A DNA stretch of 64,000 nt from Escherichia coli (GTDB taxonomy: Bacteria > Pseudomonadota > Gammaproteobacteria > Enterobacterales > Enterobacteriaceae). The notes beneath the pieces were generated by a model. The model had not been told where the DNA came from. It did no database searches and saw nothing but the letters and a program-made list of their open reading frames with translations. The position numbers were made by a program, and so were the translations under genes. The DNA lies in NCBI RefSeq assembly GCF_003790525.1, contig NZ_CP033635.1. One strand, 5' to 3'. Positions 50,060-50,311 of the stretch are shown here, one piece after another; position 1 is the first letter of the stretch; each line of letters begins with the position of its first letter.

Positions 50060-50311
50060 CGTTTTATTACATAACTGAAGAAAGCATTGCATTCCGGGAG
50101 CGTCCATATATGTTACCTCGCGCCCGACCCGGTAGCCGCAAGGGATAAGCCGAGGGTACCGCGCAGCGGCGATTTTGTTCGCCAGAGCCCGGGGGGCAGG
50201 GGGCGGCGGCGATTGGCCGCCCCCTGCGCGCTCCTTGCGTCAGTGGCAATATGTGGCTTAGCTCATGAAAGGAGCGCAACAAGATGATGAATCAACATAT
50301 AACAACATTTT

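Follow-up and report, generated by a model that had tools for sequence, protein, structure and literature searches.

A GC-rich hairpin beside an IS1111-family element in Escherichia coli is part of the TRIP1/RRS repeat

The GC-rich hairpin that lies between an insertion sequence (IS) and aqpZ in the 64-kb stretch of Escherichia coli DNA analyzed here (the window) is part of a known element under active study, the TRIP1/RRS repeat, and belongs to its 3′ half. The conserved feature is a 12-bp stem whose sequence changes freely in the Enterobacteriaceae while its complementarity is kept, and this stem is one helix of a multi-helix fold of ∼255 nt. Taken as a whole, it is quite probable that the hairpin is the GC palindrome of the TRIP1/RRS 3′ half and that the neighboring IS was guided to another loop of the same repeat, 84 bp upstream. 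The element is known, and the useful new detail is incremental: a covarying hairpin at the published “G4” site, an IS that targets the RRS and an inversion linked to that IS, all of them absent from Pham et al. 2023–2026 and Li et al. 2024. The interpretation offered in a preliminary description of this DNA is only partly supported.

That description reported a 9-bp inverted repeat, GGGGGCGGC (50199–50207) and GCCGCCCCC (50216–50224), between the IS and aqpZ. Both arms are present in the window sequence exactly as claimed, and so is the placement, with the right end of the IS (50111) 84 nt away and the aqpZ stop codon 122 nt away. Three pairs beyond the 9-bp core make this a perfect 12-bp stem, GCAGGGGGCGGC (50196–50207) and GCCGCCCCCTGC (50216–50227), around the 8-nt loop GGCGATTG (50208–50215). 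No other 9-bp GC-only hairpin occurs in the 64-kb window, where just three distinct hairpins, this one included, have a perfect stem of at least 12 bp; counted by register, four are observed against a mean of 0.04 in first-order Markov simulations of the window. Its predicted stability is −36.8 kcal/mol (plus strand) and −30.0 kcal/mol (minus strand) as RNA, and −20.8 and −19.3 kcal/mol, respectively, as DNA. An Rfam search of the IS-interrupted window gave no match at E ≤ 1. The features at this end of aqpZ are:

50196..50227, no strand assigned, GC hairpin (12-bp stem and 8-nt loop), with covariation across the repeat family
50312..50339, minus strand, aqpZ intrinsic terminator, made up of GGCCTGGCGCAATGTCAGGC and then a run of T (minus strand); distinct from the GC hairpin
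50350–50352, aqpZ stop codon

A GC-rich stem-loop placed between convergent genes could be taken for the transcription terminator of aqpZ or dusC, but there is next to no probability that it is one. Neither strand has a T/U run 3′ of the stem, where GCGCTCC (plus strand) and CCCCCCG (minus strand) are found instead; promoter and terminator scans of the intact K-12 intergenic region found none; the gene neighborhoods in which the hairpin is found are many and unrelated; and aqpZ already has its own canonical terminator at 50312–50339. The K-12 counterpart of that last stretch gave only weak matches resembling sRNA terminators.

The repeat to which the hairpin belongs, ∼222–266 bp long, is TRIP1 (Rudd 1999; Li et al. 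2024, PMC10888264), which is the same as RRS, the “replication risk sequence” (Pham, Cox, Goodman 2023–2026). TRIP1 copies include TRIP1a between lysO and aqpZ, TRIP1c between dusC and mdtQ, TRIP1d between alx and sstT, and others (Li et al. 2024, PMC10888264). The RRS are two 222-bp repeats that lie ∼650 kb to either side of dif and anchor RecA and SSB peaks on single-stranded DNA of the lagging strand, one or both of them being conditionally essential (PMC10287960; PMC10592627); the element has been recognized only recently, and it reportedly programs post-replication gaps to either side of the Ter domain. When the IS is removed, the window flanks are contiguous at the K-12 lysO-aqpZ locus with ∼96% identity. 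Homology to K-12 TRIP1a and TRIP1c extends over the 222–266 bp unit, and a near-identical copy of the repeat lies downstream of dusC. The window order, dusC-[repeat+IS]-aqpZ, agrees with the published locations (aqpZ/lysO and dusC/mdtQ), and the published RRS coordinates and sequence do include the hairpin palindrome. The window thus shares with published TRIP1/RRS the sequence, the two loci (lysO-aqpZ and dusC-mdtQ), the G4 motif and the inversion known from strain SMS-3-5, but here the repeat is split by the IS and chimeric, with one half from each of the two copies, as follows:

48641..48725, plus strand, TRIP1/RRS left (5′) half, from the TRIP1c / RRS-dusC copy
48646–48666, 5′ strand of the closing helix, in the left half
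48684–48705, hairpin 1 of TRIP1/RRS, loop CATGGATG, in the left half
48707–48725, left half of hairpin 2 of TRIP1/RRS
50112..50280, plus strand, TRIP1/RRS right (3′) half, from the TRIP1a / RRS-lysO copy, as placed by family alignment and K-12 contiguity
50162–50183, 3′ strand of the closing helix, in the right half
50228–50277, second 3′ hairpin of TRIP1/RRS, in the right half

Folded without the IS, the K-12 copy has a long closing helix that encloses two hairpins with loops CAUGGAUG and CAGGGAUG, and 3′ of this helix come the GC hairpin and then the second 3′ hairpin; the whole fold has a predicted energy of −147.9 kcal/mol (z = −6.2). A possible pseudoknot joining the loop of the hairpin (GGCGAUU) to the 5′ strand AAAUCGCC, noticed by eye, was dropped because the loop G stays constant when the 5′ strand changes. 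An origin of the repeat as a MITE was likewise set aside: there are no terminal inverted repeats or target duplications at the boundaries of the Klebsiella repeats, and comparison of a filled alx-sstT site with the K-12 site shows replacement by other repeats and no clean insertion.

Scanning a single genome of each species with a pattern that partly fixed the 5′ domain and left the hairpin free gave 96 loci, all from the Enterobacteriaceae except for a few chance matches and apparently contaminated assemblies. The genera that carry the repeat are Escherichia, Klebsiella, Citrobacter, Enterobacter, Leclercia, Silvania, Atlantibacter, Kluyvera, and Pseudocitrobacter. Copies are also present in PLSDB records, several of them chromosome-sized; the maximum there, 13 places, is in a 5.4-Mb Klebsiella pneumoniae record that is filed as a plasmid. 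In almost all copies the hairpin lies at a constant position with a different sequence. The ∼90 copies from nine genera display 40 distinct hairpin sequences, mostly perfect stems of 10–13 bp, of which GCCAGGGTGGT/GCCACCCTGGC, TGTTAAGGGTAC/GTACCCTTAACA, GCAGGGGGAGGA/TCCTCCCCCTGC and the G-poor Citrobacter stem TGTAAAGGGCGT/ACGCCCTTTACA are examples. The hairpin loop almost always starts with GGCG.

The pairing was counted in two ways. RNAalifold recovers the hairpin only in part from a MAFFT alignment, owing to indels near the loop, and anchored, alignment-free pair counts were therefore used: at least 10 contiguous pairs are present in 70 of the 78 copies that could be anchored by their 3′ flank, and only 2 of the 12 stem positions are invariant in the anchored copies. 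In the MAFFT alignment of 83 sequences, the outer four hairpin pairs have 14–43 double substitutions each and zero unpaired cells, the closing helix is present and covarying, and 86.9% of the cells of the whole fold are paired. The covariation score of the whole fold is 0.271 compared to 0.122 for column shuffles (0 of 500 reach 0.271) and at most 0.078 for slid controls, these covariation counts being ones that ignore phylogeny and within-genome copying between repeats.

One arm of this perfect and strongly covarying hairpin is the polymerase-stall site of the RRS, a coincidence that does not appear in Pham et al. 2023–2026 or Li et al. 2024. The G4-forming sequence named by the RRS authors is 5′-GGGGGTGCAGGGGGCGGCGG-3′ (PMC10592627), and its counterpart here is:

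50191..50209, plus strand, G4-motif counterpart, GGGGGGCAGGGGGCGGCGG, one base shorter than in K-12

This segment overlaps the G-rich 5′ arm of the hairpin, to which it adds the G run immediately upstream, and therefore contains the 5′ arm of the inverted repeat first described. According to the literature, when this strand serves as lagging-strand template the single-stranded RRS folds, DNA polymerases stall at the G4 site, and a gap of up to ∼2 kb remains, onto which SSB and RecA are loaded. The stable stem-loop probably contributes to the polymerase block or is itself the block, with a G4 adding strand asymmetry in the E. coli/Klebsiella type.

That the G-quadruplex alone matters, the G-rich arm forming it on the lagging-strand template and the C-rich arm being incidental, is the reading that the published work favors, and it is possible but rather unlikely. 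At the G4 site of the RRS, stalling of Pol I, II and IV is confined to the G-rich strand, and in primer-extension and M13 experiments the G strand is strongly blocked at this site and the C strand has weaker blocks elsewhere (PMC10592627). With the G-rich strand as lagging-strand template, gaps form at essentially every replisome encounter (RRS papers, Pham et al.); these papers describe a “secondary structure”, and a G4 predictor scores the motif highly, as does G4Hunter for the window sequence type (∼1.8–2.1). On the other hand, the complementarity of the arms survives many double substitutions, and the opposite strand, although free of any G4, still stops ∼66% of replisome encounters (2026 preprint, Pham et al.). 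The G tracts of the window copy are G6, G5, G2 and G2, that is, two tracts of three or more followed by two GG tracts, and the canonical motif of four G3+ tracts is absent; it is found in only 2 of 91 copies of the family. G4Hunter reaches a maximum of ∼1.8 in the E. coli/Klebsiella type and is 1.2 or less in 44 of the 91 copies, namely those of Citrobacter, Enterobacter and the yegH-asmA type (the Citrobacter or Enterobacter copies scoring 1.1 or less), yet all 44 keep the stem, and so conservation points to base pairing. G4 propensity is less conserved than the hairpin, and high propensity is limited to the E. coli/Klebsiella type.

The published strand asymmetry nevertheless points to something extra on the E. 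coli G strand. The hairpin alone does not explain it, since its predicted energy is similar on both strands; a G4 or G·T-assisted folding does. The RRS papers contain no mutational separation of the G4 from the hairpin (Pham et al. 2023, 2024, 2026), the word “hairpin” is absent from them and from Li et al. (2024), and neither covariation nor an IS in the repeat is reported in Pham et al. 2023–2026 or Li et al. 2024. With G4 propensity lost in about half of the family, the question of G4 versus hairpin becomes directly testable.

The repeat might also act as RNA, in the form of a structured noncoding RNA or a 3′-UTR element like TwoAYGGAY in which a dimer of CsrA is bound by the two loops; protection of the 3′ end against exonucleases would then be the part of the GC hairpin. 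Such a role is improbable, although several observations fit it. Rfam consistently matches the repeat to one family alone, TwoAYGGAY (RF01731), over its full length and in the same orientation, with 28.9–30.6 bits for the E. coli and Citrobacter copies (E = 0.0086 in a 601-nt search and 0.44–0.86 in a larger one). TwoAYGGAY has a long closing helix around two hairpins with AYGGAY terminal loops (Weinberg et al. 2010), an arrangement that the repeat resembles, and it is predicted to bind CsrA (PMC4333381). In the repeat, loop 1 is AUGGAU in all copies, having been fixed by the scan pattern, and loop 2 is AGGGAU or AGGGAC in the E. coli and Klebsiella copies (AGGGAU in the E. coli repeat compared) but AUGGAU in those of Leclercia and Silvania; the GC hairpin lies outside the 168-nt TwoAYGGAY model. 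The repeat contexts comprise 29 convergent gene ends, 18 and 17 co-directional positions in the two orientations and 3 divergent ones; its orientation agrees with that of the upstream gene by about 2:1, and it avoids divergent-promoter regions. An AT-rich stretch lies upstream of it, and a promoter-like spacer lies between head-to-head pairs in Citrobacter. The SELEX consensus that Dubey et al. (2005) reportedly obtained for CsrA is RUACARGGAUGU, and the loops ACAUGGAUGU and ACAGGGAUGU fit it.

Against an RNA role, no copy reaches the 43 bits that Rfam sets as gathering threshold, and ten related loci searched at gathering thresholds gave no TwoAYGGAY and only unrelated families. The AT-rich stretch upstream is no more than diffuse in 87 copies; a −10 box conserved in position is absent, and so is a T run 3′ of the repeat. 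The genes dusC and ybjE are unflagged in CsrA CLIP-seq tables, which are gene-centered and do not cover intergenic regions. Counts of G:U versus A:C favor neither strand clearly (190 G:T cells and 130 A:C cells), and point no more to selection on single-stranded DNA than to selection on RNA. None of the four enterobacterial accessions sought occurs in the portion of the original TwoAYGGAY alignment that was consulted; the gammaproteobacterial accession in that portion is NC_008709.1, presumably Psychromonas ingrahamii. A function at the DNA level has been shown experimentally (PMC10592627; PMC10287960).

The preliminary description had read the hairpin as a REP-like element and a candidate insertion target of the adjacent IS. 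It is not a REP. The REP consensus GCC(G/T)GATG...CTTATC(C/A)GGCCTAC (a unit of 35–40 nt) is absent near 50150–50290, no GCC(G/T)GATG...GGCCTAC is present within several kb, and the closest matches in the window are at 45275 and 59000. The hairpin-bearing flank occurs in 1–5 places per genome (median 3 among 5425 genomes), whereas REPs number in the hundreds. TRIP1/RRS resembles REP/BIME elements in being extragenic, palindromic, repeated and mostly located at gene 3′ ends; a REP, however, is a single palindrome of 35–40 nt with hundreds of copies per genome, and TRIP1/RRS is a unit of ∼255 nt with several helices and few copies and has no consensus in common with it. The hairpin should be annotated as TRIP1/RRS, not as REP.

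The K-12 empty site between lysO and aqpZ reads TTTTACAGGGAT/GTTACCTCGCG (the slash marks the junction). As proposed in the preliminary description, the region was compared with K-12 lysO-aqpZ; the flanks are contiguous there, as in most complete E. coli genomes, and the IS is therefore 48726–50111. The dinucleotide AT is present at both junctions (48724–48725 and 50110–50111), so this boundary shifts by up to 2 nt. The IS features are:

48726..50111 (1386 bp), plus strand, IS1111-family insertion sequence, delimited by the K-12 empty site and the junctions of ∼27 copies
48732..48742, plus strand, left subterminal inverted repeat ATGGACGCTCC, 6–7 bp from the left end
48811..49836, plus strand, IS110-family (DEDD) transposase gene (341 aa; Pfam DEDD_Tnp_IS110 and Transposase_20)
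49885..50059, plus strand, candidate seekRNA/bridge-type guide RNA, base stem 49885–49895 / 50049–50059
49947–49955, top-strand guide GAGGTAACA, in an internal loop of the guide RNA
49971–49979 and 50041–50048, tentative further guides for the bottom strand and the IS right end, respectively
50097–50107, right subterminal inverted repeat GGAGCGTCCAT, 11 bp, 3–4 bp from the right end
TTTTACAGGGATGTTACCTC, putative target sequence of the IS

A DEDD transposase, 11-bp subterminal inverted repeats, a downstream noncoding region and ends that would form a promoter when abutted define the IS1111 family (PMC11187229). The element has these traits, the noncoding region downstream of the transposase gene being 275 nt long, and its traits thus match the definition of Siddiquee et al. 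(2024), which places it in the IS1111 family. ISEc11, ISKpn4 and ISPa11, IS1111 elements with a seekRNA (Siddiquee et al. 2024), have the same DEDD transposase, 11-bp repeats and 6–7/3–4 bp extensions, and like them the present IS has a long downstream noncoding region with the top-strand complement 5′ in the RNA. It differs from ISEc11 in length (1386 bp compared to 1433/1443 bp) and in its target, a TRIP1/RRS loop. The transposase cluster names supplied no IS name. Read from the sequence, the IS ends abutted in a circle would form a promoter, TTGCAT and TATAAT separated by 16 nt.

The junctions of about 27 copies of this IS were read. Those of E. coli represent four arrangements of neighboring genes (dusC-IS-aqpZ, lysO-IS-yohP, dusC-IS-yohP and yegH-IS-asmA); the others are from Enterobacter cloacae, Klebsiella aerogenes and Kluyvera. 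Unrelated, non-palindromic sites for the other copies would have spoken against a palindromic target, but this is not the case, as all but one of the ∼27 share the same nucleotide of the repeat. The insertion point (50111/50112) is in the repeat's second CAGGGAYG loop, TTTTACAGGG-AT-GTTACCTC, which belongs to a different hairpin 84 bp upstream of the GC hairpin; insertion there has consequently split the repeat in two and left the GC hairpin intact. The IS is thus specific for a repeated palindromic element, TRIP1/RRS, as had been surmised in general terms, and this element is neither a REP nor the GC hairpin. The one exception, locus L106 in Enterobacter, is at TTTTTCATGGAT/GCTTGCCTT, a target look-alike outside any repeat with no hairpin nearby. 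Targeting of one repeat loop with single-nucleotide precision across genera is not described in Pham et al. 2023–2026 or Li et al. 2024.

The IS would be guided to this loop by its own downstream noncoding RNA. The 9-nt segment GAGGUAACA (49947–49955) is fully complementary to T+GTTACCTC, the sequence of the right junction, and so pairs with 50111–50119, 84 nt from the GC hairpin, and the top-strand complement is 5′ in the RNA, as the IS1111 rule has it (PMC11187229). Guide and target change together: the K. aerogenes IS has A49953G, matching its target GCTGCCTC, and the Enterobacter IS has T49951C, matching the GTTGCCTC variant that is common in Enterobacter repeats. The K. aerogenes target has AC as its dinucleotide, and there the left junction has AT and the right one AC, which would fit strand exchange within a two-base core. 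For the bottom strand, an ungapped search gave no convincing segment, and a bulged pairing at 49971–49979 is tentative.

A REP-like hairpin that is itself the insertion target of an IS110-family element is therefore very improbable. REPs and other palindromes are targets of IS110/IS1111-family elements (IS621, for example, targets REPs), the present IS does target a repeated palindromic element, and in Enterobacter sp. MGH24 an unrelated IS3-family element lies inside the hairpin loop. Set against this are the missing REP consensus and low copy number, an insertion point 84 bp off in all but one of the ∼27 copies, guide complementarity that maps to and co-varies with the flanks of the insertion site, and the off-target copy L106 without a nearby hairpin. 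As the target of this IS, the hairpin is already refuted by the positions of the other IS copies.

The window is identical to E. coli SMS-3-5 (NC_010498.1), and its local gene order is yohJK, dusC, IS110-family transposase, aqpZ, ybjD. In K-12, dusC (2.23 Mb) and aqpZ (0.915 Mb) are far apart, so the junction in the window is the product of a large inversion, and this is why the neighbor of the IS opposite aqpZ is dusC and not lysO. SMS-3-5 has two hairpin-bearing half copies and two IS copies; both of its RRS are therefore split, each with the hairpin half intact beside the IS. A joint reading of these results is that what selection maintains at the “G4 site” is the hairpin, within a covarying fold, and not a G4, and that a dedicated RNA-guided IS1111 element evolved for the repeat, can split both RRS and supplies the homology for the recurrent, Ter-symmetric inversion of 1.3 Mb; this combination is plausible, but its chance of being correct in full is put at somewhat below even. 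If it is true, strains that carry the IS would be natural tests of which half of the RRS is needed, all the more since the RRS is reported to be conditionally essential in at least one copy.

The SMS-3-5 inversion, 1,313,407 bp between TRIP1a and TRIP1c, has been attributed to the repeats with no mention of the IS (Li et al. 2024, PMC10888264). The IS is present in 179 of 5426 complete genomes, with a median of two copies. Of the 5426 genomes, 85 have dusC joined to aqpZ by the inversion, 84 of them in the arrangement dusC-IS-aqpZ; strain SBF22 has the reciprocal junction, lysO-IS-yohP, as well. The inversion is thus tightly linked to occupancy of both repeats by the IS, and recombination is more likely to have used the 1.39-kb IS copies as its substrate, the genome counts being ones that include clonal relatives. 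Neither the splitting of both SMS-3-5 RRS by the IS nor its presence at 84 of the 85 inversion junctions has apparently been reported. The single other genome, KFu014, has the arrangement dusC-repeat-aqpZ without the IS, and a 1.2-kb query made from the SMS-3-5 junction with the IS removed matches it with 100% identity.

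In the window dusC adjoins aqpZ (47633-51045; see also loci L123 and L129), and this adjacency is one junction of a ∼1.3-Mb inversion symmetric about Ter. The reciprocal junction, lysO-IS-yohP, where the IS is the IS1111-family element that inserts in the second loop of the TRIP1/RRS extragenic repeat, is found in the same strains as dusC-IS-aqpZ. Among 5426 complete genomes the latter order occurs in 84, and an IS-free form of the junction is present in KFu014 only.

The left end of the IS includes an inverted repeat:

48733-48749 / 48793-48809: 17-nt inverted repeat in which the IS left subterminal repeat pairs with the transposase ribosome-binding site (AGGAGCGTCCACATG)

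Such pairing could mask translation from read-through transcripts. Joining the IS ends head to tail would give TTGCAT-16 nt-TATAAT. Around the 3′ end of the repeat is a short open reading frame:

50266-50314: AAGGAG, 8 nt, then ATG ATG AAT CAA CAT ATA ACA ACA TTT TAA

An ATG often comes after the 3′ GGAGCGCAAC of the repeat in E. coli copies, but the peptide predicted here, MMNQHITTF, is not conserved; the reading frame is probably a chance occurrence.

An off-target copy of the same IS in Enterobacter (L106; GCA_034106165.1), inserted at TTTTTCATGGAT/GCTTGCCTT, lies outside any repeat and shows that a look-alike sequence suffices for insertion. A different element occupies the loop of the homologous GC hairpin in a single case, Enterobacter sp. 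MGH 24:

L028, ∼5945-7300: IS3-family element, orfA 171 aa and orfB 234 aa, at site GGCGATTG/CAC TGAACCCC...

In E. whittamii (L082), Leclercia (L079), and Silvania (L046) the repeat is interrupted by a small nested insert of ∼90 bp (GGACAAAATTGCCGGGAGCAATTTTGAACAGCGCCTGCGCTGGCCCCGAAGGGGTGAGGCCC...), which resembles a further miniature repeat and is positioned after the junction GGA motif and before the 3′ strand of the closing helix.

The yegH-asmA intergenic region (K-12, L005 5487-5759; also L004 2990-4600) contains a related but more divergent repeat, and the five types of TRIP1 that Li et al. (2024) distinguish do not include it. Only its 3′ half remains in K-12, following a deletion between two TACCC repeats. 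Strain MLI106K3 has the whole copy, with the same IS1111-family element inserted at the position it takes in the other copies of the repeat. The alx-sstT region, where TRIP1d is present in 1669 of the 5426 genomes, has in K-12 a different, boxC-like repeat instead (CCCTCTCCC...GGGAGAGGG...GGGGTGAGGG; L121 430-860, compared with L009); it is a hotspot at which different repeats substitute for one another.

Citrobacter copies (L008, L014, L025, L032, and L033) are arranged head to head as inverted pairs, with ∼90 bp of AT-rich spacer between the partners; the spacer has a sigma-70-like TTGCTG-16 nt-TAAAAT. The upstream members have CAGGGAYG in both loops and for this reason escaped the scan pattern, which left them out. 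In Klebsiella (K. pneumoniae, L084-L089 and L006) REP units (GCCGGGTGGCGGCTGCGCCTTACCCGGCCTAC) usually flank the copies, many of which share an extra conserved module of ∼70 nt downstream, and L006 has two copies in tandem, 437 bp apart. Klebsiella- or E. coli-type copies also occur on contigs labelled as a Desulfacinum MAG, a Sporobacter MAG, and Bacillus sp. (L026, L054, and L074), the Bacillus contig being 583 bp long at 0.7x coverage; assembly or bin contamination is the most likely source of these three.
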